Position numbers and translations under genes: made by a program
Notes under the pieces: model-generated
The model's input: only the letters and a program-made list of their open reading frames with translations
The model's database searches: none
What the model was told of the DNA's origin: nothing
Shown here: positions 7,072 through 43,748 of the stretch, piece by piece
How the letters are laid out: the number at the start of each line of letters is the position of its first letter
Position numbering within the stretch: the first letter of the stretch is position 1
Assembly: GCA_947630105.1 (NCBI GenBank)
Contig: CANRGD010000001.1
Span: 5,749-69,748 of the forward strand
Direction: 5' to 3'
DNA from: an uncultured Bacilli bacterium
Lineage (GTDB): Bacteria > Bacillota_I > Bacilli_A > RF39 > UBA660
Length of the DNA: 64,000 bases

Positions 7072-7752
7072 TTACCTCCTAAAAATTTCCTTATTTTCAG
7101 CACTTTCAATAAATTTATAAATATTAGCGGGCTTTCGTCCTACAAAATTAACCTTTTTTTCTGTATCATAAATTAAATTTAAACTTAGTAGTTTTTTTCT
7201 AAAATTACGTCTATCCAGTTTTTTATTTAAAATTAATTCATATACTTTTTGAATTTCAGGTAAAGTAAATCCCAAAGGATATAAACTACGTAAAATATCT
7301 GTTCTTAAAATTGCTATCTTTAGTTTATTAATACTATCAGTTAATATTTCATTGTGATCATAAGCAAGCGCTGGTATCTCTGTAATTGAAAACCACTCTG
7401 CGTTAGATGTCTTTAAAGTTTCTTTTAATAGTTCTACATTTTTCAAATCAACTAAACCAATATAACTAACTGCCACCATTCTTATAAGAGGAGCTCTATC
7501 TTTTTTTCCAAATACATTACACAAACGTAAATCTATATTTTTAAGTCCGGTTTTTTCAAATATTTCTCTATTTAAACCTTCCATCAAATCTTCATCATTA
7601 TATAAAGCTCCTCCAACTAAAGCCCACATCCCATTATAAGGATTATTTTTTCTTTTTATTAATAAAACTTTCACTATTCCCTTATCCACAGTAAATATTG
7701 ATGAAATCAAATGAATACCTTGATTTTTATATTTAGGATTATTAATTTCCAA
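7072..7752 (-). CDS. NUDIX hydrolase fused to a C-terminal winged-helix domain (NrtR-like)
   Basis: 226 aa; Nudix box GGALYNDEDLMEGLNREIFEKTG, followed by a C-terminal domain typical of NrtR regulators. Confidence 0.55.
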   Translation of the reverse strand: MEINNPKYKNQGIHLISSIFTVDKGIVKVLLIKRKNNPYNGMWALVGGALYNDEDLMEGLNREIFEKTGLKNIDLRLCNVFGKKDRAPLIRMVAVSYIGLVDLKNVELLKETLKTSNAEWFSITEIPALAYDHNEILTDSINKLKIAILRTDILRSLYPLGFTLPEIQKVYELILNKKLDRRNFRKKLLSLNLIYDTEKKVNFVGRKPANIYKFIESAENKEIFRR

Positions 7753-7877: not shown

Positions 7878-9335
7878 CTATTTATTTCTCATAAGTGGAA
7901 ATAAAATAACATCCTTAATATTTTCAGAATTAGTAAGTAATTGAACTACTCTATCAATTCCCATTCCCCAACCACTTATTGGCGGCATACCACATTCCAT
8001 AGCAGAAATATAGTCATAATCCATTGGCATTGCTTCTTCATCACCAAGTTCTTTTAATCGAGCTTGTTCTTCTAATCTTTTCATTTGTTCTTGAGGATCA
8101 ACAAGTTCAGAATAAGCATTAATAATTTCAGCTCCATTAATAATTAATTGGAATCTATCAGTAATTTCTGGATTATCATCATTAGCTCTAGCCAAAGGAC
8201 TTAAACTAATTGGATGTTCCGTTAAAAATATAGGATTAACTATATTAACACGGGCAACTTTTTTATAAAGTTGATCAACTAAATTACCATAACCTAAATC
8301 TTCTAATGCCGTTTCTGAATCAATTTCAATTTTATCTTCTTTTATCTTCTTTAATAATTTTTCTTTTGTATCATATTCTTTTATATCAATATTACTATAT
8401 TTTAAAATTAAATCTCTAAAACTTACTGCTTCCCATTCTCCACTTAAATCTACATCTTTATCACCAACAGTAATAGTCAAAGTACCAAATAATTTCAAAA
8501 TTATATTTTGTAACATTTCTCTTAAAAATTTCATATTATCTTTATAATTATAATAAGCACAATATCCTTCAATCATTGTAAAATCTTGCAAATGAGTAGC
8601 ATCCATTCCTTCATTTCTAAAACATCTAGCTATCTCAAAAACTTTATTAAATCCCCCTACTACTGCCCTTTTTAAATATGTTTCGGGAGCAATTCTTAAA
8701 TATAAATCTATATCTAATGCATTATGATGGGTAATAAAAGGTTTTGCTGTAGCTCCACTTGCTTTATTATTTAAAATTGGTGTCTCAATTTCAATATATC
8801 CTGCTTTATCTAAATAATCACGAATTTCTTTAATAAATCTACTTCTGAATAAGAATTTCTTTTTAGCATCATCATTCATTATTAAATCTAAATATCTTTC
8901 ACGATAAATAGTTTCTATATCTTCAACACCATGAAATTTTTCTGGTAATGGTCTTAATGCTTTTCCTAAAAAAGTTATCTTACTAGCTCTAACAGTTTTT
9001 TCTCCTGTATGAGTAGTAAACACTTCTCCTTCAACTCCAATAAAATCCCCTAAATCATAATTAGTTTTGAATTCACTATAAGCTTCTTCTCCTATCATAT
9101 CTAATTTTACAGAAACTTGAATTTTTCCCTTTATATCTCCAATAGTTAAAAAACTCATTTTTCCCATTTTTCTCATCAAAACTATTCTACCAGCAATACA
9201 AACACCAGTCACACCATCTTCTAATTGACTAGCCTCATCTAATTCATAATTTATTTCAAATCGTTCAGGATAAGGATTTTTAATATTTTGTAATTTTTCT
9301 CTTCTAACTAACTCTTGTTCACTTAATTCTCTCAT
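7878..9335 (-). CDS. lysS: Lysine--tRNA ligase
   Basis: 485 aa class II aaRS with N-terminal OB-fold anticodon-binding domain. Confidence 0.95.
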   Translation of the reverse strand: MRELSEQELVRREKLQNIKNPYPERFEINYELDEASQLEDGVTGVCIAGRIVLMRKMGKMSFLTIGDIKGKIQVSVKLDMIGEEAYSEFKTNYDLGDFIGVEGEVFTTHTGEKTVRASKITFLGKALRPLPEKFHGVEDIETIYRERYLDLIMNDDAKKKFLFRSRFIKEIRDYLDKAGYIEIETPILNNKASGATAKPFITHHNALDIDLYLRIAPETYLKRAVVGGFNKVFEIARCFRNEGMDATHLQDFTMIEGYCAYYNYKDNMKFLREMLQNIILKLFGTLTITVGDKDVDLSGEWEAVSFRDLILKYSNIDIKEYDTKEKLLKKIKEDKIEIDSETALEDLGYGNLVDQLYKKVARVNIVNPIFLTEHPISLSPLARANDDNPEITDRFQLIINGAEIINAYSELVDPQEQMKRLEEQARLKELGDEEAMPMDYDYISAMECGMPPISGWGMGIDRVVQLLTNSENIKDVILFPLMRNK

Positions 9336-16429: not shown

Positions 16430-16642
16430 TTAATCAAGAATTTCTAAATTATCAATAAGTAAATCACTATAACTAAATGATCTAATTTTAGAATCATTCA
16501 AAGTTATTACAAAAATAGCCGGATAAACACCTGTAATTGTTCCTTCAAACTCTTCAGTTTGATTTCTGCTCCCTTTAAATCTAAAGCTATGTTCTACTCC
16601 CTTATTATCCGAAACATACTTTTTTACCATACTTATTGTCAT
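16430..16642 (-). CDS. veg: Veg protein
   Basis: 70 aa Veg/DUF1021 pattern; adjacent to yabG as in Bacillus. Confidence 0.75.
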   Translation of the reverse strand: MTISMVKKYVSDNKGVEHSFRFKGSRNQTEEFEGTITGVYPAIFVITLNDSKIRSFSYSDLLIDNLEILD

Positions 16643-17160
16643 CTTGGATACCCCACATACATAGTACCATTAGTTATAATTCCACCTATCCCATCACTAC
16701 CATATTTTGTTTTTTCAATTAAACTAATTAAATCAATACTTTGATTTCTATCCGATAAAGCTAATGAGGAAGCTATAATAGCTGGATCTAAAGCATGAAT
16801 ATTAATTCTTTTAGGACTAGAAGCAAAATTAGCTCCTGCTTTAATTAATTCTTCATAATTAGATTGACATGCCCCTGCTATAACAATTAATTTATCTTGA
16901 CTCTTTTCATATTTTCTTATCTCTCTAATAGCCGCAATAAAATTACTAGTATTTTGGTAATTATCCAAATTATTTTTGTCTTTTTTCTTTGAATAAAAAG
17001 CATCATGTCCAGTAATTACTACTATATCAGGACGATATTCTTTTATAAGACCTAACACTTTATTTGACATTTCTACCTCAGCCAAAGTAAGACCATTAGC
17101 TTTAACACCCATACTATCATAAAAACTCATACATCTTTCTAAATATTCTTCATCTCCATC
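16639..17160 (-). CDS. yabG: Sporulation-specific protease YabG, 3' segment (residues after the conserved H-I-D junction). The caller's ORF continues to 17373 by reading through into element DNA
   Basis: The segment DGDEEYLERC...RPDIVVITGHDAF...IVIAGACQSNYEELIKAGANFASSPKRINIHALDP aligns with the C-terminal two-thirds of B. subtilis YabG. The upstream 71 residues of the called ORF have no YabG similarity. Confidence 0.8.
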   Translation of the reverse strand, partial: DGDEEYLERCMSFYDSMGVKANGLTLAEVEMSNKVLGLIKEYRPDIVVITGHDAFYSKKKDKNNLDNYQNTSNFIAAIREIRKYEKSQDKLIVIAGACQSNYEELIKAGANFASSPKRINIHALDPAIIASSLALSDRNQSIDLISLIEKTKYGSDGIGGIITNGTMYVGYPR

Positions 17161-17459
17161 TGCTGACCTTTGATAAGTAAATACGTGTGTTTTAAATAAA
17201 GGCAACTCTTTGCCATCATGTAGATTTAAGTAATTTTTCGGTCTCTCATATAACTTCTTTACTTTTTCATTTATCAACCTTTTTATTGCTTTTCTTTTAT
17301 CCTGTTCTTTTATTTCAGGTTCCTGCGATAACCTTAAATACAGAATAACCTTAGAGTCATTTGTTAGTTCCATAATTTACCTCCCTTTCTAACCTTTTAT
17401 ATATGCGACTTCTTGTGCCACTCTAATATATGATGCATTTTCTCTAATCATACATTCTC

Positions 17460-19022
17460 TTAATACAATTTTATTTTTTTAGGATCTCCTAATCCAAATT
17501 TATATGATATTTTTAATGTATTATCACTATAAACTACAATTTCTTTTATCAAATCTCTAACAACATTATTGATAAATTCATCATGATTTATAAATTTATT
17601 ATATTTATCAATCAATTCTTCTTTTCGTACTTTTTCATTTTTTGACTCCATTATTTCTTTTAGCATTTGCTCGGATTGTTCTTTTTGTTTTACTTCTTCC
17701 TCTTTTCGTTCAATGAACTCATTTAAAGTTATTTCTCCTGTAGTCTTTTTTAAATACAGATTTCTAATATTAGCATTATGAAATTCAATATCTTCCTTTA
17801 AATTAGATATTTTCAAATTGGGTCTTTCACTTTTTAATATATCCTTGGTTGCTTTAGAAACAATCTTTTCTTCATCAACATAATTATCGATGATATCCTT
17901 CAAATTTTCTTTAATTATTGTTCTTAATCGAGAATCTGCTATTTTTCTGTTTTTACACCGTTTTCTATCAACAACTTTCGTACATTCAAAGTAGTATTGT
18001 ACTTTTCTGTCTTTTTTTTGAACTCTACACGCTGTCATTATCCTTCCGCAAGTACCACAAATAACTAAACCACTGAATAAACCACAATAGTCATTTTTTT
18101 CCCTTCTTTTCGTTTGCCTTAATCTACTATTAGCAGCTTCAAATAGCTCATCAGATATAATAATCGGATGACAATTCTCTATTGCTTCTCTATCTCTTAT
18201 AGGTATTACTTGTCTTTGCTTTTGATGATAATCTTGCTTACTTGATTTTCTTTTAACAATTCTTCCCGTATAAGTTTTATTTTTGAGTATTCTATAAACA
18301 ACCTTGTTAGACCAATCATAGTAATATTTTTTATTTTTGCTTGGTGTCATTTTCATATGAATAACAGGTGGTATAACTTTATCCTTATTAAGCTCATCTG
18401 CTACTTCCTGCCTAGTCTTACCACTTGCTACTTCAGTAAAAATCCTTTTTACTACTTTAGCAGCATCTTCATCAATTTCAAGAAACCTTTTATCTTTAAT
18501 TTTCTTAATTTTATATCCATAAGGTGCCATAAATCCAATAAACTGTCCTTCTTCTGTTTTTGCCATTGCTACCTGTTTTCTTTTTACGGATGCCTCTTTA
18601 ACATATCGGTCGTTAATTAAAGAACGTATACCTAACATTACCTCTTGTTCATTATCTTGAGGATTATTACTATCAAAGCAATCATTGATAGCAATATATC
18701 TAACATTATTTTTAGGAAAGTATTCGCTTATATAATATGCAGTTTCTAAAAAGTTTCTTCCTAATCTGGACATATCTTTTGTTATAACTATGCCAATTAA
18801 ACCATTTTCAATATCTTCTTTTAATCTTTCAAATCCAGGTCGATCAAAAGTTATTCCCGAATACCCATCATCAATATATTCTCTATCTACTGTCAAACCC
18901 ATACTTTTAGCATAAGATTTTATAAAACCTAATTGATTATATATGCTAGATGAATATTCACTTTCTTTAACAAAATCTTCTTGAGATAATCGCCCATAGG
19001 AAACAGTTAATCGATTATCCAT
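17460..19022 (-). CDS. Large serine recombinase (resolvase catalytic domain, recombinase domain, zinc ribbon), second of a tandem pair
   Basis: YGRLSQED catalytic-serine motif, DDGYSG, VITKDMSRLGRN, and a C-terminal Cys cluster. The likely start is the ATG at 19022, preceded by a GAGGT RBS, which overlaps the upstream recombinase stop by 8 nt. Confidence 0.85.
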   Translation of the reverse strand: MDNRLTVSYGRLSQEDFVKESEYSSSIYNQLGFIKSYAKSMGLTVDREYIDDGYSGITFDRPGFERLKEDIENGLIGIVITKDMSRLGRNFLETAYYISEYFPKNNVRYIAINDCFDSNNPQDNEQEVMLGIRSLINDRYVKEASVKRKQVAMAKTEEGQFIGFMAPYGYKIKKIKDKRFLEIDEDAAKVVKRIFTEVASGKTRQEVADELNKDKVIPPVIHMKMTPSKNKKYYYDWSNKVVYRILKNKTYTGRIVKRKSSKQDYHQKQRQVIPIRDREAIENCHPIIISDELFEAANSRLRQTKRREKNDYCGLFSGLVICGTCGRIMTACRVQKKDRKVQYYFECTKVVDRKRCKNRKIADSRLRTIIKENLKDIIDNYVDEEKIVSKATKDILKSERPNLKISNLKEDIEFHNANIRNLYLKKTTGEITLNEFIERKEEEVKQKEQSEQMLKEIMESKNEKVRKEELIDKYNKFINHDEFINNVVRDLIKEIVVYSDNTLKISYKFGLGDPKKIKLY

Positions 19023-20604
19023 ATTTAACCTCATTCAAATTAAAATTAAAGAAAATTTTAACTGACTTATCTTCATGTATTTCTATTCTATTAACAAATG
19101 TCCTTAAGACTTCCTTATCGGGATTCTTTGCATTTAAAAATTCATTGATGTATTTCCTTTTCGTTTTTTCATCTGTTAGAATATTTTTGGCTTCACTTAC
19201 TGATATTTCTAAATCTACTATTTTTTCTGCACAATTTTTTCTATCTTTCTCTAGGTCACTTTTTATTCCAAAAAATTCCTCATTAGAAATAATATTATTT
19301 GCTCTATCCTTATATAAATCACTAATAACCTTATCAATAGTTATCATTTTTGATTTATATTCTTTTAAATTAGCTTCATATTCGCTTAAAACATTCAAAT
19401 CACATAATGATGTTTCATATTTTTTTTCTAAAGATTCATTATTAGAATATTTGATTAAGATAGTTCTAATTTCCTTTAAAACAAGTTCATTCAGATCTTC
19501 CTCTCTATAATAATGCATTGTACATACGTGATTACGATATGTTGCATAAGTTCTGCACAGATATATAGGAGTAATTTTTGTAGAGTCGTTCTTTCCTTTT
19601 ACTCGTCGTACTAACATAGTCTTACCACATTCGCCACAAACAACTAATCCTTTTAACAAGTAATCATATTGTCTATGACGTGTATCAGTCTTTCTTTTAG
19701 GAGTATTAACCTTTTCAAAAAGTTCAGTAGAAACAATTTGAGGTAATGCTCCTTTTTTTATTATCCACTTACTTTTTGGTAGTAGTCTTTTCTTTTTTGA
19801 CTTCAAGCTCACCCTTTCATATTTTCCTTGAATCAAAGTTCCTATATATACTTCATTTTCTAATATATGTTTAACAGAAGATGCCTTCCATATATTCGTA
19901 GTCACCGTGACTTTTTTCATTTTTTTACCTCTATAAACGTCAGGAGGACTAATCCCATCGTTTGTTAAAATTCTTGCTATCATCCCTTCCGATTTTCCAC
20001 TATCTTTTAATTCAAAGATTTTTTTAACTATTGGTGCAGCATACTCATCAATAACAAGTAGCTTATTATTTTCCTCTGATCTTTTATAACCAAAAGGAAC
20101 AGAACTACCTACAAATTCTCCTTTTTTCATCATATCGTGTCTAACACTTTTAATTTTTTTTGATATATCTTTTATATACATATCATTGATAACTGCCTTA
20201 AAAGGAATTATATCTTCTACCCCATTAGGAGTTAAAGAATCATAATTATCCAATATAGCAATATATCTAACATTATGTTCTGGAAAATATTTAAACACAT
20301 AATTACCAGTCTCTATAAACTCTCTACCTAATCTAGACATATCCTTTGTAATGACGCAATCAATTACTCCGTTTTCAATGTCATTTATTAGTCGACGAAA
20401 TGCAGGTCTATCAAAATTTCCACCAGAGTATCCATCATCAACATAGTAATCATATATTTCAATATTGTTTTTCAAAGCAAAATCTTTTATAAAGGCTCTT
20501 TGATTTTTGATACTTATACTTTCGTTATTTTTATTGTCATCTTCTATCGAAAGCCTTAAATAACCTCCTGCTTTGTATGTTTTATCAGTTAAGTAATTTA
20601 TCAT
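19015..20604 (-). CDS. Large serine recombinase, first of a tandem pair
   Basis: YLRLSIED, DDGYSGG, VITKDMSRLGRE, CGECG...C zinc ribbon. The start at 20604 is preferred because of its GGGAGGG RBS; the caller's ORF extends to 20637. Confidence 0.85.
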   Translation of the reverse strand: MINYLTDKTYKAGGYLRLSIEDDNKNNESISIKNQRAFIKDFALKNNIEIYDYYVDDGYSGGNFDRPAFRRLINDIENGVIDCVITKDMSRLGREFIETGNYVFKYFPEHNVRYIAILDNYDSLTPNGVEDIIPFKAVINDMYIKDISKKIKSVRHDMMKKGEFVGSSVPFGYKRSEENNKLLVIDEYAAPIVKKIFELKDSGKSEGMIARILTNDGISPPDVYRGKKMKKVTVTTNIWKASSVKHILENEVYIGTLIQGKYERVSLKSKKKRLLPKSKWIIKKGALPQIVSTELFEKVNTPKRKTDTRHRQYDYLLKGLVVCGECGKTMLVRRVKGKNDSTKITPIYLCRTYATYRNHVCTMHYYREEDLNELVLKEIRTILIKYSNNESLEKKYETSLCDLNVLSEYEANLKEYKSKMITIDKVISDLYKDRANNIISNEEFFGIKSDLEKDRKNCAEKIVDLEISVSEAKNILTDEKTKRKYINEFLNAKNPDKEVLRTFVNRIEIHEDKSVKIFFNFNLNEVKYG

Positions 20605-20687
20605 TTTCACCCTCCCTTTATTCCTAACTAACTCCACATAACACAGTCATTATAAATTACTTATCAATTTATTCCCAATGTGCAAAT

Positions 20688-20813
20688 TTATTGATATTTT
20701 GTATTTTGCAGTGTTGACTTCAAATATCTTTCAAATGCCTCTAAAATTTTTTCACTAATTGTTGGAGCATTTTCATCAAAAACACATATAACTAATTCCT
20801 TGCCTTTATCCAT
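20688..20813 (-). CDS. Small 41-aa ORF (MDKGKELVICVFDENAPTISEKILEAFERYLKSTLQNTKYQ) with a strong RBS, just upstream of the recombinase pair
   Basis: AGAGGAGG Shine-Dalgarno 7 nt upstream of the ATG. Not in the supplied ORF track because it is too short. Confidence 0.3.
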   Translation of the reverse strand: MDKGKELVICVFDENAPTISEKILEAFERYLKSTLQNTKYQ

Positions 20814-21031
20814 GGTATTCCTCCTCTTTAAATTTATGAATATTTTCTTAATTAATGAACAAAAAATTCCTTAATATTTTACATAAGTTAAATTTTTTAC
20901 CATTGATTTAAAATGTTATAGTAAAATAAATATTGAAAACAAAAAAGCAAACTCACCTTTATAGAATTTGCTCATTTACTCATTTCCTATTTCTTTTCAA
21001 TAATATCGTATGTAAATTAAATACTATATAA

Positions 21032-21490
21032 TTATTTTAAATTATAACCTAACTTTTCTAATTCCATATTTGCAATATATGATAATTCTTCTTTTGAAAG
21101 TTCATCAATTTCATAAAAATCAGCACCAAGTGAATCATCATTTTGATCATCAATCTTAACATTTCTTTTTATTTGTCCATCATATTCTAACACTTTGTAA
21201 AAAACACCAACATGGTGACCTTTTATTATAACATCTTTATAAGGCCATTCAAAAGTAACCGAATCAGCATCAAATAATTCATGCTTTTTTACTTCTATAC
21301 CAACTTCTTCTACTAACTCTCTTTTTAGTGTATCTTCTGGTCTTTCACAAAATTCAATCGTACCACCAGGCAAATCTAACTTTCCATCATATGGACCACC
21401 AGATTTTTTTATCAATAAAATCTTACCTTCATTTACTATTAAAGCATAAGCTCCCAATTGTTTGTATTCTTTATATTTCTCCACCTTCAT
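21032..21490 (-). CDS. NUDIX hydrolase (element cargo)
   Basis: 152 aa; Nudix box GGTIEFCERPEDTLKRELVEEVGIEV. Confidence 0.8.
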   Translation of the reverse strand: MKVEKYKEYKQLGAYALIVNEGKILLIKKSGGPYDGKLDLPGGTIEFCERPEDTLKRELVEEVGIEVKKHELFDADSVTFEWPYKDVIIKGHHVGVFYKVLEYDGQIKRNVKIDDQNDDSLGADFYEIDELSKEELSYIANMELEKLGYNLK

Positions 21491-21518
21491 CGCTCCTATT
21501 TAGCATCATTATATCATA

Positions 21519-22673
21519 TTATTTCTTTAACACATAACTAAATTTATTTTTATCATTTTTATGATTATCTTCCCAATCAAAACTTACCTCTTGCTCTCTA
21601 CAATAATCACAAAAAGGTATAGGTTTATTTAATTTTTCAATTGCTTCCCAACCATCAGTAATATCATTAATTTTTACATAATCGTCGTCAGAAATTTCAA
21701 AGTTTGTTCCATACTTTTTATTAAGAATATCAATTAATAAAGGATAATAACATTTTGAAATTTTTCCATCTCTTAAAAACCTACAAAATCTGCCATAACA
21801 AATTTCACTAGCAAAATTATTCTCACTTTTCTTTTCTAGGGATAATCTTGTCTGAAATTGTTTTATAACTTCTGGTTCTTTAAAATAATCATCATTAATT
21901 AAGTATTTAATATTATATTTTTTTAATGTTTCTTCAATACTTTGTATTTTTTCATATGTAGGTTTATATAAGGAAATAGAAATCATTATATTATTATCTG
22001 ATATTGTTTGCAATGTTTCATTATCCAATCTATCAATTAACAGACCATTTGTTACAATAACAATTCTAGATTTTTTTAAAATATTTCTAGCTATTTTAAC
22101 TAATTCTGAAATTTTTGGATGGAGAAAAGGTTCTCCCCCTAGGATTCTAAAATTATATAGAAAAAATTTATCAGATACCTTTTTCAAATCTTCTTTAAAT
22201 TTATTTACATCAACATAATTATTATCATAAATATTTGAAAAATGAGCACAACCTTTACAATTTAAATTACATTGATCAACAATATTCATCTCTAAATAAT
22301 TTAAAAAAGGAATATTAAAATCAATCTTTTCAAGGTGTTGATATAAATCTTCTATAGTATTTGGATTAGAAAATAAAATTTCCTCACTTACTACATACAC
22401 ATTCAAATATTCATGCTGTTTTAAATAAGTAATTGTTTCTCCTAATATCATAGGCTTTTTTGTAATAAATATATTACTATCTTTATCTATGTTAAAATAT
22501 TCATCAACACCAATGGTAGGAATATCTCTATAGATATTTTGTGGCAACCTTTTATTATCATTAGAAATTTTTAAAAAACCATCAATTGGAATATGAAATT
22601 TTTCTAATATTTCGGCTGTTTCAGCTGCAAAAGGTCCTGTACCAAAAATGAAATTATTTGCCATACTTATCAC
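21519..22673 (-). CDS. Radical SAM enzyme with N-terminal extension and C-terminal Cys-rich (SPASM/twitch-like) region (element cargo)
   Basis: 384 aa; CNLNCKGCAH CxxxCxxC cluster; additional C-terminal cysteines CYGRFCRF, CYYP, CDYC. Confidence 0.8.
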   Translation of the reverse strand: MISMANNFIFGTGPFAAETAEILEKFHIPIDGFLKISNDNKRLPQNIYRDIPTIGVDEYFNIDKDSNIFITKKPMILGETITYLKQHEYLNVYVVSEEILFSNPNTIEDLYQHLEKIDFNIPFLNYLEMNIVDQCNLNCKGCAHFSNIYDNNYVDVNKFKEDLKKVSDKFFLYNFRILGGEPFLHPKISELVKIARNILKKSRIVIVTNGLLIDRLDNETLQTISDNNIMISISLYKPTYEKIQSIEETLKKYNIKYLINDDYFKEPEVIKQFQTRLSLEKKSENNFASEICYGRFCRFLRDGKISKCYYPLLIDILNKKYGTNFEISDDDYVKINDITDGWEAIEKLNKPIPFCDYCREQEVSFDWEDNHKNDKNKFSYVLKK

Positions 22674-23658
22674 CTGCTTTCTGATAAACCTTAGGATGCT
22701 CTAAAGAAGCAATTCTAAAATTTAAATTTTCATACATCCAATCAAATTTTCCATATTGTTTCAATTCACAATCAACAATCATCTTTAATATTACGTACAT
22801 TCTATAAATTTCTATTCTATTTAATTCTGATGAATTAAGTGATGATTTATTAAAACCCTTCAAAAAATGAGAACTCATTTTACCATCAATAGTATGAAAA
22901 TAAAATGTCATTAACTCATCACAATAATACAAATCTGTAAAATCAACTATACCAGAAATATTACCTTCATTAACAAGAACATTGCCATCCCATATATCTG
23001 TATGACTTAAACATAAATTTGTTATATTATTAAGATTTTCCTTATTTGATGATATTACATTTATAATTCTTTCATACATATTTTTTCCTAAATCCATATT
23101 TTTAGTAGATGCATCATTTAATAATAATTGAAATAAATTTAATACAAACTCAAAATTATCATTAAATCTTTTCTCAGGCTGACTAGGTAGAAAAAATTCA
23201 TTACCTTTTAACATACATATTTTAGAGCTAAAAAAGCCAATCTGATATTCTATCTTTTCAATTTCTTTTGAAGTTAACTTTTCCTTGCATTGTAAAAAAT
23301 TATTTCCTGGTATATAACTCATAAAAAAGTAAGGCTCTTTACAAATATTACTAGTATCACTATATCTTAATAATCTAGGAGATGGAAAATCTATTGTTTC
23401 CATTTTCTTTAACATTTCGGATTCCCACCATAAAATATTTCTATCTACGGTTATCATTTTACTTTCATCTTTAGGTGCTATTTTAAGAACGACTTTATTA
23501 CCATCATCATCTATTAAATATACTGCATTTTTCATTCCACCACTTAATTTCATAATATTTAATTTATTGGATTTTTTTTGAAATGATTCTTCATACATTA
23601 ATTTAATTATTTCTTCTGATTGATAATTTTTTACGGAAGAATTATTATTTGTTTCCAT
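22654..23658 (-). CDS. APH/choline-kinase-family phosphotransferase (element cargo)
   Basis: 334 aa; catalytic loop LSHTDIWDGNVLV and IVDFTD (DFG-like). Overlaps its neighbours on both sides, consistent with an operon. Confidence 0.65.
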   Translation of the reverse strand: METNNNSSVKNYQSEEIIKLMYEESFQKKSNKLNIMKLSGGMKNAVYLIDDDGNKVVLKIAPKDESKMITVDRNILWWESEMLKKMETIDFPSPRLLRYSDTSNICKEPYFFMSYIPGNNFLQCKEKLTSKEIEKIEYQIGFFSSKICMLKGNEFFLPSQPEKRFNDNFEFVLNLFQLLLNDASTKNMDLGKNMYERIINVISSNKENLNNITNLCLSHTDIWDGNVLVNEGNISGIVDFTDLYYCDELMTFYFHTIDGKMSSHFLKGFNKSSLNSSELNRIEIYRMYVILKMIVDCELKQYGKFDWMYENLNFRIASLEHPKVYQKAGDKYGK

Positions 23659-25591
23659 TTTTGGCTCCTTGATATCCTTTTATGTATTTTTTACAAACTT
23701 CGTTAGTATATTGGAATTCATCATTATCTACTGTTAAATGAAAAATATTATCATAAGCATAATTAGATATTTTATGTTTATAATACTTTCTAATAAACGA
23801 TTTTAAATTAGCAACTTCCTCAAACATAAAACCTTTCATTTTATTAAAATACATATAATTTGATACTTTTACCAGCATATTTAATATTACTATTGTATTA
23901 CTATCATATTTATCAATCAAAGTACTTGCTTTTATATATGGAATTCCTTCAAATTCATGATTATCTTCATAAATTGCATTTATAAACTCACTATACTTAT
24001 CCTTTAAATCAATTGGTATACATTCTTGTATTGATACTTTTTCACCAATAAGGCCTACTGCTTCTTTCATCATATTCTCATCTAAAGAATTCCATAAAAT
24101 ACCTATACAAGGTAATTCTATTGATGGCATTTTATTCTTATCTATTTTTCCATCTTCGATTAAAGTATTTATAATTGATAATACTTCATCTAATTTTCTA
24201 AACTTCTTAACATTATTTGCTGTTAATAGTAAATTCATTAAATTATTTATCACATCCTGTAATTCTTTTTTAAATTCATCTTTTTCTAAAATACCTTCTT
24301 TGTGGTCTCTCATATAATTCCTAATAATATGAACCAAACTATTATATAATATTTTTTCAGCAGCATCTCTATACTCTTCCCCTTGAGATAGAACTTCTTC
24401 ATATTTTTCTTTTCCCCAATCTTGAAGTGTAAATAATTCAGATGATATTTTATTACCTGTTAATGATACAGATTTTCTTTTAACATAGTGATAAAATGGT
24501 ATATTAACAAGTGCAAATGATTTATCCTCCTTACACAATCTGTAAATATAATCAGAATCTTCTTTAAAACAAGTTTTATCAAATCTAATATTTCTAATAG
24601 AAGAAAGTTTATATAACTTATCCCAAGCAGGAATCAATATTGTTGCATCCGAATATGCATTGATTAAATCTAAATGACCCTCTACTAATTTAACTCCTTT
24701 TTGTTCACAACTTACATCTTTAATATCACCATTTTTCATATGAATATAAAAACTACTTTCACATACATCTGCATTTGTTTTTTCCGCGGTTTTCATTAGG
24801 GTTTCAATCATAGAATTTTCAACATAATCATCAGAATCAAAAAAACATATATATTCTCCTGTTGCTAACTCTATTCCTTTATTTCTAGTCTCAGCAAGTC
24901 CACAATTTTGCTGATGAACAACTTTTATTCTACTATCCGCCTCGGCAAGTAAATTACATATTTTTAATGAATCATCTGTTGAGCCATCATCAATTAAAAT
25001 TATTTCTAAATTTCTATAAGTTTGATTTGTTATACTTTTAATACAACGTACCAAATAATTAGATGTGTTATATATAGGTACTACAACAGTAACTTTTTTA
25101 TCATTATAAATATTATAGTCAATATATTCTTGTAATTTATCTTTCCAATCACTATCAGTATCATTTATTTTTAAATGATAAAAAGAATCATTATAAGTTG
25201 ACTCAATACTTTTAACTCTATATTTTTGTAATAATTCCATTCCATTATCTAAACAGCTATGATACTGATTAGAATTTGCTTTTATTACTAAATTACAATT
25301 ACTAAAAATATATGAATCTTCTAAATTAGAATAATTAATAACAACTATATCATTCTTCCTAAAATGAGCTAAATTTGCCATTATTTCATCATCCACTTTA
25401 TTTCTAATTTTCATAAAATATAAAATCTTTGAATTATAATTCATATTTTTTTCTTTATCGTAATAATTATCCTGTTCTAAAATTTTTTTTAGTATTTGAT
25501 CTACATCTAAATACTTAAATGAATAATTTTCAATTAAATACTCTGCAATTTCCTTTCCTACTCTATTATTACCGGTAATTCCTACAATCAC
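23645..25591 (-). CDS. Three-part protein: N-terminal P-loop nucleotide-kinase-like domain, central family-2 glycosyltransferase domain, C-terminal domain of unknown function (element cargo); GTG start
   Basis: 648 aa. GITGNNRVGKE P-loop. VTVVVPIYNTSNYL...LIDDGSTDDS with FFDSDDYV DxD motif, typical of GT2. GTG start with a GGGGGTG RBS. Confidence 0.7.
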   Translation of the reverse strand: MIVGITGNNRVGKEIAEYLIENYSFKYLDVDQILKKILEQDNYYDKEKNMNYNSKILYFMKIRNKVDDEIMANLAHFRKNDIVVINYSNLEDSYIFSNCNLVIKANSNQYHSCLDNGMELLQKYRVKSIESTYNDSFYHLKINDTDSDWKDKLQEYIDYNIYNDKKVTVVVPIYNTSNYLVRCIKSITNQTYRNLEIILIDDGSTDDSLKICNLLAEADSRIKVVHQQNCGLAETRNKGIELATGEYICFFDSDDYVENSMIETLMKTAEKTNADVCESSFYIHMKNGDIKDVSCEQKGVKLVEGHLDLINAYSDATILIPAWDKLYKLSSIRNIRFDKTCFKEDSDYIYRLCKEDKSFALVNIPFYHYVKRKSVSLTGNKISSELFTLQDWGKEKYEEVLSQGEEYRDAAEKILYNSLVHIIRNYMRDHKEGILEKDEFKKELQDVINNLMNLLLTANNVKKFRKLDEVLSIINTLIEDGKIDKNKMPSIELPCIGILWNSLDENMMKEAVGLIGEKVSIQECIPIDLKDKYSEFINAIYEDNHEFEGIPYIKASTLIDKYDSNTIVILNMLVKVSNYMYFNKMKGFMFEEVANLKSFIRKYYKHKISNYAYDNIFHLTVDNDEFQYTNEVCKKYIKGYQGAKNGNK

Positions 25592-25618
25592 TGATAAACA
25601 CCCCCAAAATTATCAAAT

Positions 25619-25648
25619 ATACTAGCATATTCCCCCATATTTTGTCAA
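25619..25648 (-). promoter_or_regulatory. Candidate sigma-A-type promoter for the cargo operon (TTGACA-18 nt-TAGTAT)
   Basis: Read on the minus strand: ttgacaaaatatgggggaatatgctagtatat, about 25 nt upstream of the GTG start. Confidence 0.3.
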
Positions 25649-26085
25649 TTAAATGTCCAAGGAATCACAGAGTTCATTCTTATATTAAATGTTTTAATTA
25701 AAGTGTTTTATTTTTACTAGATTCTTATTCACAATCTTTTATAAATTTTTTTATATAGTCTATACATCTTAGAGAAATATATCTTTCTTTAACATCTGCT
25801 ATCCAAATTACTTTACAATTAGATATATTTTCAACCTTTCATTCTAAAAAAAGATATGTATAGCAAAAAAAAGAACTTAAATTTATTAAATTCTTGTTAT
25901 GTTTTATTAGTTAAGAATATATCAATTTTATTTACTTAAGAAATGTCACCCCTCCTTTTGAGTGAAGAATCTTTTAAATTTTTTACCTATTTTTTGGCAT
26001 TTTTGAGATTTTTTATGAATTTTAAAGTTTAGTATTTCCCTATTTTATAAGGGTTTGCGAGTGGTTATTTAATTTAATGTCAGCG

Positions 26086-26357
26086 TCAATATGTAATATT
26101 TTTCCTGGTATATAAAAATATTTATTTCTATCCATTTCTAAACTTCTTAAATTACTTTCTATAATTTGTTTATCCTCAGCCTTTCCTTCTGTATTAGCAA
26201 TCACTAAATCGTTAATATCACTATCCGCATAAAGTCTTAAATCAACACCTTTTAACAAAACACTATTTTGATTAATTTCAATGATTTTAAATAAAATATC
26301 ATGTTGATGAGAAATTCTAGTAACATAATCACCTATATTAAATTGCAATAACATCAT
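26086..26357 (-). CDS. yabG: Sporulation-specific protease YabG, 5' segment (N-terminal ~91 residues). The caller's ORF runs on to a stop at 26040 inside the element
   Basis: MMLLQFNIGDYVTRISHQHDILFKIIEINQ...LRLYADSDINDLV...YFYIPGKILHID aligns with the B. subtilis YabG N-terminus (MQFQIGDMVARKSYQMDVLFRIIGIEQ...RLIADSDFSDLV...HMPGKVLHLDGD). Confidence 0.8.
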
Positions 26358-31519: not shown

Positions 31520-31790
31520 CTCTCCTAAAAAAAGTTATTATAATATAAGGACGATTTACCGTGGTACCACCTTATTTTATAATAACTTGTATTATACACT
31601 ATTCTAGTTAACGCCTAGTAGCGATTATTCCTACATATCGAAATAATAGTTCAGAAGCCATATTTTATAATTATTTATTCTCATTTTCACCAACTTGAGA
31701 TCTCTTCTTCATAAAATTTAAATTATAAAACTCTTCATCAAAACTTTTAAATATTTAAAAATTTATACTATTAATATAACATAAGAACAC
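31520..31790 (-). promoter_or_regulatory. Putative T-box riboswitch leader of metG
   Basis: Minus-strand sequence AAGGUGGUACCACGG (31559-31573) matches the conserved T-box motif AGGGUGGNACCGCG. A U-run follows immediately before the metG RBS, and the leader is ~270 nt long. Confidence 0.5.
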
Positions 31791-43554: not shown

Positions 43555-43562
43555 AAAACCTC

Positions 43563-43650
43563 CAAAAAAAAGTGCACATGAAAGTTTAATTTTAAGGCTG
43601 CTATTTTCCAATCCTGACCTAGTTCAATTTCTTTCATTGCACAAGCATAT
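43563..43650 (-). ncRNA. ffs: Small (4.5S-type) signal recognition particle RNA
   Basis: Minus-strand sequence ...GUGCAAUGAAAG AAAUUGAACUAGGUCAGGAUUGGAAAAUAGCAGCCUUAAAAUUAAA CUUUCAUGUGCAC UUUUUUUU. The closing helix GUGCAAUGAAAG/CUUUCAUGUGCAC flanks the conserved domain-IV motif GGUCAGG-N-GGAA-N-AGCAGCC (E. coli: GGUCAGGUCCGGAAGGAAGCAGCC), and a U-run terminator follows. Confidence 0.55.
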
Positions 43651-43748
43651 TTTATATTATTTTATTTATTTTGTAAACAAATAATTTTAATTTTTTGCAT
43701 ACTCTTTTTTTCAAAAAAAATTAAAAAATATTTATATTTATTAAATTT

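Follow-up and report, generated by a model that had tools for sequence, protein, structure and literature searches.

The 64,000-nucleotide stretch of DNA analyzed here (the window) comes from an uncultured Bacilli bacterium (GenBank assembly GCA_947630105.1, contig CANRGD010000001.1, positions 5,749 to 69,748 of the forward strand), and in it the sporulation protease gene yabG is split in two by an insert of 8,925 bp. We conclude with high confidence that this insert (17161–26085) is an integrated, structurally intact, non-phage integrative cassette and that it belongs to a family present in uncultured low-GC gut Bacilli. Our confidence is, if anything, higher still that it is an integrative element with its crossover at a GA dinucleotide. 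Sequence comparison establishes the anatomy of the element and the position of the crossover, as well as horizontal movement of the family into the same site and the occurrence of empty sites in one host species.

YabG takes part in the maturation of the spore coat and influences germination. Its gene is under the control of SigK (PMC10747680). On the minus strand of the window, the genes are ordered ksgA, yabG 5′ fragment, insert, yabG 3′ fragment, veg, spoVG, yabP and yabQ, and yabG is broken between the codons for HID and GDE. The 5′ segment (26086–26357, minus strand; M...PGKILHID) carries the beginning of the Pfam Peptidase_U57 domain and is preceded by a CATA-type box. Its open reading frame (ORF) continues for 14 codons into the element, off the frame of the real gene, to a stop at 26040, and this ORF (26040–26357) matches positions 1–66 of the Peptidase_U57 profile (E 6e-18). 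The 3′ segment (16639–17160, minus strand; D-GDEEYLERC... to the stop, including the core GA at 17159–17160) is part of an ORF at 16639–17373 that matches profile positions 56–280 (E 5e-71), and is 93% identical over 173 amino acids to the intact YabG protein P0001.

Read on the minus strand, the left junction is ...tca gca GAt gga gat gaa (S A D G D E) and the right junction ...cat att GAc gct gac att (H I D A D I), with TC on the plus strand at 17159–17160 and at 26086–26087. The proposal of an initial annotation of this DNA, that a GA is common to both junctions, was thus confirmed in coordinates and codons, and sibling loci break right after the same GA. Splicing the two yabG segments in silico at this dinucleotide produced HIDGDEEYLERC, which equals the intact yabG of the closest relatives with zero indels, and the spliced protein used as a query retrieved intact YabG proteins of 260 amino acids at up to 87% identity. 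Intact relatives (87% and 85% identity) have the gene order ksgA-yabG-veg-spoVG-yabP, as in the window, and read FYLPGKILHIDGDEEYLERC, with the DNA sequence ...CATATC-GA-TGGTGATGAAGAATATTTAGAA (TGGTGAT... after GA). They are equal to the predicted attB in both length and register, which bears out the further claim that recombination at GA yields an attB restoring YabG. As in the intervening elements skin, SPbeta, gin and yin, the insertion interrupts the reading frame of a sporulation gene of the mother cell, and its removal in silico restores that frame exactly. Neither a compositional contrast between element and flanks nor long direct repeats at the element ends were found in the window.

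At the yabG 3′ junction (attR, gene orientation), the crossover GA (17159–17160) separates the B′ arm, the host half-site TGGAGATGAAGAATATTTAGAAAG (17135–17158, yabG strand), from the P arm gtatttacttatcaaaggtcagca (17161–17184), all on the minus strand. The B′ arm matches the intact yabG of loci L012 and L013 to the right of GA, and the P arm has an inner TCAGCA and an outer motif of the GTTACTTAA type, which is degenerate here (ATTTACTTA). At the yabG 5′ junction (attL), comparison of the junctions places the crossover GA at 26086–26087, between the B arm, the host half-site ATACCAGGAAAAATATTACATATT (26088–26111), which matches intact yabG to the left of GA, and the P′ arm cgctgacattaaattaaataacca (26062–26085, yabG strand), which is complementary to the P arm; these, too, are on the minus strand. 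The reconstructed attP of the window is gtatttacttatcaaaggtcagca-GA-cgctgacattaaattaaataacca on the yabG strand and ...aatttaatgtcagcg-TC-tgctgacctttgataag... on the plus strand. The predicted 40-mers are TTATCAAAGGTCAGCAGACGCTGACATTAAATTAAATAAC for attP and AAAATATTACATATTGATGGAGATGAAGAATATTTAGAAA for attB, and the predicted excised circle is 8,927 bp long with one GA included. The junction string previously offered for detecting this circle by PCR (...aatttaatgtcagcGAcgctga...) had been mis-assembled, with plus-strand text joined to minus-strand text.

The plus-strand termini of the element, TGCTGAC (17161–17167) and GTCAGCG (26079–26085), are complementary at 6/7 positions. GA is the sole dinucleotide shared by the two junctions in the gene-restoring register; at the base composition of the window the chance of a shared dinucleotide is roughly 0.1 (a rough estimate), which is weak evidence taken alone, and the short palindrome tcagcaGAcgctga is only modestly unusual. 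When the 24-nt arms of the window were compared without gaps, 13/24 positions were complementary (null 7.4 ± 2.3, P=0.018). Scored with gaps, arm against arm, the window has P=0.011, L007 and L010 each have 6e-4, and L023 has <5e-5. In the L023 attP (GTTACATAAAAAAAGACAGCA-GA-TGCTGCCTTTTTTTATGTAAT), 22/24 arm positions match, in an element with a recombinase just 36% identical to recombinase A of the window (here recA). In each reconstructed attP, GA lies at the centre of an inverted repeat, which is weakest in the window.

Across the family, the element end on the side of the yabG 3′ part (yabG_C) has the form GTTACTTAAC-N5-6-TCAGCA-GA and the end on the side of the 5′ part (yabG_N) the form GA-YRCTGAYAT-N4-TTAAGTAAC, each motif occurring once per locus, at the junction. 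The outer motifs GTTACTTAA and TTAAGTAAC occupy half-site positions ~13–22, with a 1-nt offset between the arms. The 24 nt of the P arm have a mean top-base frequency of 0.85, compared to 0.60 in the next 26 nt (13 loci). The element-side arms complement each other and remain conserved in recombinase lineages as distant as 36% identity, in agreement with the view that the element has inverted-repeat ends and an imperfectly palindromic attP. The P′ arm of the window recurs as an identical 24-mer in L099 and L102, and related arms are present in L007, L010 and L023. The symmetry of attB is at chance level (6–7/24, ungapped), and inspection by eye of the B and B′ arms gave no convincing copy of the outer motif ~5 bp nearer the centre, where the LI integrase model would have it. 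The inner B′ motif TGGnGAy (TGGTGAT) resembles the inner P′ motif YRCTGAY (TGCTGAT). The P, P′ and B′ arms have the inner motif (T)CAGCA / TG(C/G)TGA in common, to which the B arm (...ACATATT) bears no relation. The attP of the LI integrase model is ~40–50 bp long and has a dinucleotide at its centre, imperfect inverted repeats on either side and, in each half-site, a distal 9-bp motif; attB is shorter and asymmetric in serine integrases, and a non-palindromic 2-bp core sets polarity (PMC3783163). The attP of the window and its family has this organization, namely inverted repeats around a central dinucleotide and a distal motif in each half-site.

A scan of a genome collection with recA identified 11 loci in different species-level metagenome-assembled genomes (MAGs), mostly from rabbit gut, and in 10 of them the order orf41-recB-recA-P arm-yabG_C was observed. 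Further searches brought the family to 36 loci with 18 distinct host yabG_C sequences. Relatives of recA form at least 126 clusters (44–90% identity). Complete elements were obtained in five cases (the window, L007, L010, L023 and L099/L102). Their attL/attR identity blocks are GA, GAT, AGATG and GATG, GA being the only common part. What is constant in the family is the operon orf41-recB-recA and the two arms.

Empty sites were found in a sibling lineage (recA cluster P0207), in which the host yabG_C is 100% identical to the intact YabG P0065. Within one species, locus L111 is occupied and locus L128 empty; the two align over 6,522 nt with 99.95% identity, beginning exactly at the G of GA, and are unrelated to its left. 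The 62-nt attB of the L128 type recurs in five more samples. Moreover, one sibling element (0–1 mismatch in 4 kb; 99.99% identity over 12.1 kb) was found next to four different right-hand partners that diverge straight after GA. Two of these are the yabG_C of two different host alleles. The third, on a 340-kb MAG contig, is a 5′-truncated GNAT-like ORF (L009:12088–12200) with the junction GA|TGTTGAGTATTTTG, whose inner motif is like the TGGTGAT of yabG. The fourth is a 5′-truncated surface-protein ORF (L115:12100–12706) with the junction GA|AGTAGCCTTAGTG; its sole homologue has 29 extra N-terminal codons, and a search for the native context of this gene retrieved a single 1.1-kb contig. Insertion at secondary sites, rearrangement by the recombinases or tandem arrays could each account for the junctions of L009 and L115.

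Since the window has T or A before the G and C or T after the A, and since the sibling loci have their breakpoints at the same place, we place the exchange point exactly at GA. Taken together, the comparative sequence data (attB in relatives, arms in 13 loci, the empty site and the partners) lift the GA observation above chance, and integration through attP × attB recombination at the GA of the HID|GDE codons can be regarded as effectively demonstrated by them. They also support the assertion that this is a bona fide integrated element with intact ends. The alternative partners and the empty site imply that the machinery has been active very recently.

The identity of recA does not track the identity of the host (Spearman 0.18). 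The window and L001 are 90% identical in recA and just 61% in YabG_C, and L004 and L005 differ in recA with a dS of 0.044, compared to 1.47 for yabG_C. This discordance between recombinase and host indicates that the element passes from species to species and inserts at one and the same site. The yabG_C of the window has a dN/dS of 0.05 against intact orthologues, much like intact copies compared with each other (0.035), and the recA dN/dS for the window and L001 is 0.23. All complete split yabG_C copies examined read through to a normal end of the ...MYVGYPR type (the L102 and L109 copies run off their contigs and are outside this statement), and no decay of split yabG was found among the 18 host lineages. 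The intact split genes are compatible with restoration of yabG and are no proof of it, because insertions can be recent.

The insert encodes two proteins that each contain the Resolvase, Recombinase and Zn_ribbon_recom domains (PF00239, PF07508 and PF13408), above cut-offs. Recombinase A (17460–19034, minus strand; 524 amino acids) adjoins the P arm, and recombinase B (recB; 19015–20637, minus strand; ~535–540 amino acids) is 32–36% identical to it. The catalytic R-x-S of recA (R15 and S17) is invariant in 13 recombinase A relatives and recB has YLRLS; this conserved catalytic motif and the full domain set of both proteins agree with the large-serine-recombinase chemistry that had been deduced from the att sites. 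The closest solved catalytic domain for both is that of TnpX (PDB 2MHC; E 4e-28 and 5e-26); for recombinase B, the solved relatives include SprA (YokA). The NCBIfam CcrB model scores the two at 76 and 111 bits against a cut-off of 900, CcrC reaches 93 against 900, and both proteins are far under the XisF family cut-off as well. recB lies upstream of recA, present and intact, in every family locus that reaches far enough upstream, and both large recombinases are intact wherever this could be checked. An apparent decay of recB in one lineage (a 439-amino-acid annotation without a resolvase domain) was traced with tblastn to the start-codon call, the gene being intact. The recB and recA frames overlap by 20 nt (19015–19034), and by 8 nt in L099, an arrangement that suggests translational coupling.

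The first gene of the recombinase operon is orf41 (20688–20813, minus strand), a conserved 41-amino-acid ORF and a candidate directionality factor or regulator. It is present in 16 loci at 42–97% identity, always directly upstream of recB; L003 has two copies ~1 kb apart upstream of recB (7256–7351 and 8219–8335). Upstream of orf41, the promoter-like boxes TTCATT-14 nt-TCATAAATT (20831–20859, minus strand) end 5–6 nt before the orf41 ribosome-binding site (RBS). A TCATAnnnT box with a T(T/G)(C/T)AT box ~14 nt upstream precedes orf41 in 15/16 loci. Among 42 window ORFs with an RBS, the TCATAnnnT box otherwise occurs upstream of yabG only, and it is conserved upstream of yabG in relatives. We take it to be a CATA-type −10 element, as judged against the SigE and SigK consensus sequences. 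Because the operon has a CATA-type −10 box like that of yabG itself, the promoter sequences hint at excision timed to sporulation in the mother cell, to which we give a slightly better than even chance.

In the window, a small conserved ORF of 71 codons (YLRLSQEPE...LINEKVKKLY; 17161–17373, minus strand) lies between recA and the P arm junction and is read on without a frame change through the yabG 3′ segment. The resulting chimeric ORF (16639–17373, minus strand; 244 amino acids) has a strong RBS, AGGGAGG, and a motif, VILYLRLSQEPE, like the N-terminus of a serine recombinase. The fusion results from the loss of a stop codon: the outer att motif GTTACTTAAC contains a TAA, and the window has TTACTTATC in its place. 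Homologues of the 71-codon ORF in L004, L005 and L016 end before the att site, and the in-frame fusion to yabG was seen in the window and L001/L099–L102 only, being called as a gene in L099–L102. Comparison of the window with L099 gave a pN/pS of 0.49, from a small number of changes. In all, the YxRLS small ORF (57–71 amino acids) is present in a subset of loci.

One sub-lineage contains a third, short ORF with only a resolvase domain (165–193 amino acids) between recA and the P arm (L009:11567–12064, L111:5932–6429 and L115:11579–12076; also after recA in L016 and L017). In the present data, this sub-lineage is the one that shows the alternative right-hand partners. The idea that the yabG-fused ORF is a remnant of this third recombinase was rejected, because L016 has both.

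Just inside the P arm, a terminator scan detected the hairpin GGCAAAGAGTTGCC followed by a T-run (TTTATTT) at 17201–17214 (minus strand), which the chimeric ORF spans. In other loci its stem changes in pairs (GGTAA/TTACC, AGCAA/TTGCT). Another hairpin, CCCTTATAAAATAGGG, lies near the P′ arm (26040–26055). Short hairpins are thus found ~25–45 nt inside both element ends, with equivalents in L007 and L099, and their stems change in pairs from locus to locus. Possible roles are to shield the two parts of yabG from transcription that runs through the junctions, or to act as accessory recombination sites.

We propose that the recombination module is the operon of orf41 and two paralogous large serine recombinases (B, then A), located at the end of the element next to the yabG 3′ part. 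Integration would occur by conservative site-specific recombination between an attP of ~50 bp, built as an inverted repeat, and an asymmetric attB inside yabG that spans the codons for PGKILHID|GDEEYL, with strand exchange at the non-palindromic dinucleotide GA. In the reverse reaction, attL and attR would recombine to release the circle and restore yabG exactly, an excision that we infer by analogy with related elements. The two recombinases would act together, and orf41 could serve as the directionality factor, the YxRLS small ORF being an alternative candidate. That the B arm is unlike the other arms suggests a division of labour between the recombinases. A more specific model, which we consider rather unlikely as a whole, would make the family a distinct class of developmental switch, a cassette like the staphylococcal cassette chromosome (SCC) with an obligate recombinase pair in which one partner reads the attP arms and B′ and the other the B arm, orf41 as directionality factor, and the operon under the mother-cell sigma factor of yabG; variable cargo, for instance glycosylation enzymes or giant surface proteins, would be kept in the germ line and lost from the mother cell upon restoration of yabG, and secondary sites would occasionally be captured (L009, L115).

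The most substantial alternative to excision during sporulation is that the cassette is mobile and uses yabG as a mere docking site, in the manner of Tn5397 or SCC. It would possibly have no recombination directionality factor (RDF), excision would be independent of sporulation, and yabG would be inactive while occupied. This possibility, which deserves to be taken seriously even though we do not favour it, would account well for the horizontal transfer, the very recent insertions, the identical element in two host yabG alleles and the empty sites within one species. The putative secondary-site junctions of L009 and L115 resemble the secondary sites of TndX (PMC4430133), and the two-recombinase operon is the arrangement of SCC, in which CcrAB needs no RDF (PMC5595907, PMC12286644). 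By analogy, a CcrAB-like promiscuity could explain the secondary junctions. It fits less well with a mother-cell target gene of the kind that the experimentally studied intervening elements skin, SPbeta, gin and yin occupy, with the rare CATA-type box that the recombinase operon shares with yabG, with the conserved small ORF at the head of the operon, and with the lack of any decayed split yabG among the 18 host lineages.

It is improbable that the window carries a dead, immobile insertion, with yabG a permanent pseudogene and the similarity of the ends a relic. Such a history would be in keeping with arms that are the most degenerate in the family, with the loss of the stop codon in the outer motif that created the read-through ORF, and with the failure to find an empty site or a circle for the window host. 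However, both recombinase genes, orf41 and both yabG halves are intact, and the recA dN/dS of 0.23 argues against decay. In addition, L099, in a different host species and with a recA 90% identical, has the identical P′ arm and a near-identical P arm, and the arm variants of the window were therefore integration-competent recently. Least probable by far is another mechanism, either transposition with a 2-bp target duplication or a crossover elsewhere in the HID|GDE region. Within one genome, a 2-bp end repeat is indistinguishable from a target-site duplication, but no transposase was found in the window element, in which the two large serine recombinases are the sole recombinases, the same site is used in 18 host lineages, and the ends form a GA-centred inverted repeat like the attP sites of serine integrases. 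There is no other in-register shared dinucleotide in the window; cores shifted to the right are excluded by L115 (A after GA) and the window (C or T after GA), and cores shifted to the left by T versus A before the G.

Several observations weigh against our interpretation of the window element as an intact cassette excised during sporulation. The P arm has two substitutions in its outer motif, and with the degenerate arms this copy could be less active. For the species that hosts the window element, searches turned up no empty site, and the closest intact YabG reaches 87% identity overall and 93% in its C-terminal part. The related loci all come from metagenome or MAG assemblies. Given the horizontal movement, the intact yabG halves could merely reflect recent insertion, and the dN/dS of yabG is dominated by its history before insertion. 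The sigma-factor assignment depends on the likeness of a short motif to consensus sequences. Profile searches with orf41 gave no family match, and it has no detectable homology to known RDFs. A family-level pattern for the attP junction of the circular form (P arm-GA-P′ arm) had 0 matches in viral contigs and 0 in metagenome contigs; the latter result says little, because a protein-based scan found only three close family members in that collection. Phage and plasmid collections contained no relative above ~32% identity, hence no unintegrated replicon. Logan contigs that start at a constant distance from recA were considered as a sign of graph branching at attL; this was rejected, as the starts are not att arms, and we attribute them to a putative 250-bp internal repeat.

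The cargo of the window element is co-oriented with yabG on the minus strand and comprises, by Pfam and NCBIfam, a NUDIX hydrolase (21032–21490), a radical SAM enzyme with a long N-terminal extension (21519–22673), an APH/fructosamine-kinase-like phosphotransferase (22654–23658) and a 648-amino-acid family-2 glycosyltransferase fusion with an N-terminal dephospho-CoA-kinase-like P-loop segment (23645–25591). Judged from these domains, it may be a set for the modification of glycans or nucleotide sugars. The cargo is unrelated among the five complete elements: L007 carries an AAA_14/DUF4143 ATPase, L010 carries vWA, TelA, AAA and GDPD proteins, L023 a 2,318-amino-acid F5/8-NPCBM surface protein, and L099 combines an AMP-binding enzyme with a hybrid histidine kinase. 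Genes for phage functions or conjugation were not found in the window element, whose cargo encodes metabolic enzymes and whose PHROG matches are to integrase/invertase-type families and confined to the two recombinases. Elsewhere in the window, every ORF of at least 150 amino acids is read from the minus strand as far as ~53.8 kb and from the plus strand beyond ~54.5 kb, a switch consistent with a replication origin in the window ~30 kb away from yabG. The only Rfam matches in the window are a T-box leader (31544–31750) and a small SRP (signal recognition particle) RNA (43556–43653), and no tRNA genes were found in it.

We conclude that the family, hitherto undescribed, is related to the intervening elements gin, skin and yin, is not of phage type and carries two recombinases. 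It could represent a mechanistic variant if the paired recombinases prove to be obligate partners. yabG emerges as the recurrent target of a second, unrelated family, widespread in uncultured spore-forming gut Bacilli, and the properties of spores in gut communities could depend on whether the cassette is there or not. The family provides a comparative series with defined attB, attP, attL and attR, a mapped GA core, occupied and empty pairs and secondary-site junctions. It also offers co-evolving pairs of large serine recombinases with a conserved 41-amino-acid partner. Such material can be used to ask why two recombinases are needed and how directionality is set, and for the mining of orthogonal integrases.

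Among known elements that excise from a mother-cell gene, elements of the skin and SPbeta type range in size from 14 to 134 kb. In skin (sigK) and SPbeta (spsM), a large serine recombinase (SpoIVCA/Skr, CD1231/CD1234, SprA/SprB) excises the element and restores the ORF, as proposed here. They are prophages or remnants with one recombinase, whereas the window family consists of 5–11-kb cassettes with a two-recombinase operon. In skin(Cd), the recombinase suffices for integration, and a small RDF made in the mother cell enables excision (PMC5025042). The element yin, in Clostridium botulinum V73, occupies the same gene, yabG, and encodes a large serine recombinase in which all three Pfam domains recur; its excision to a circle that restores yabG was shown experimentally (PMC10747680). 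However, yin is a prophage with a single recombinase adjoining the yabG 5′ part, a predicted RDF of 72 amino acids and a 14-bp end repeat (PMC10747680). In the window element, by contrast, phage genes are absent, two recombinases adjoin the yabG 3′ part and the core measures 2 bp; it belongs to a family with at least 126 recombinase clusters. yin was reported as unique to one strain, with no other yabG-disrupting element known (PMC10747680), and our search of the literature for others found none.

The gin element, in gerE of Bacillus cereus ATCC 10987, is likewise a non-phage element in a mother-cell sporulation gene with several serine recombinase genes (PMC5595907). It has a two-gene operon, girAB, and a small RDF (GirX), its attG is an imperfect inverted repeat and its attB asymmetric, and a central dinucleotide was predicted (PMC5595907). 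In gin, a separate single recombinase, GirC, performs the rearrangement with GirX and girAB is dispensable, whereas the window family has only the paired recombinases, with a small third one in some lineages. The target of gin is gerE with a shared core of 9 bp; that of the window family is yabG with a core of 2–5 bp, its cargo is highly variable, and it is known from sequence alone.

Outside sporulation, SCCmec and other SCC elements (CcrA/CcrB) resemble the family in having two large serine recombinases in one operon, variable cargo, no transfer genes and site-specific insertion in a conserved housekeeping-type gene. They differ in that their recombinases are Ccr-family proteins and in that they insert at the 3′ end of rlmH, which is kept active, whereas the window element splits yabG in the middle of its ORF, and in another clade of hosts. 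Tn5397 (TndX) and Tn4451/Tn4453 (TnpX) are like the window element in the GA core at the ends and target (TndX) and in the catalytic domain, TnpX being the nearest one solved; TnpX, too, cuts at GA. TndX always uses a central GA and has a strongly preferred target as well as secondary sites (PMC4430133). In these elements, a single recombinase suffices for both directions, the elements are conjugative or mobilisable, recA is ~31% identical to TndX, and the strong match to TnpX is confined to the catalytic domain. SCC is known to use non-canonical partner sites (PMC5595907, PMC12286644), which may parallel the L009 and L115 junctions of the family described here.

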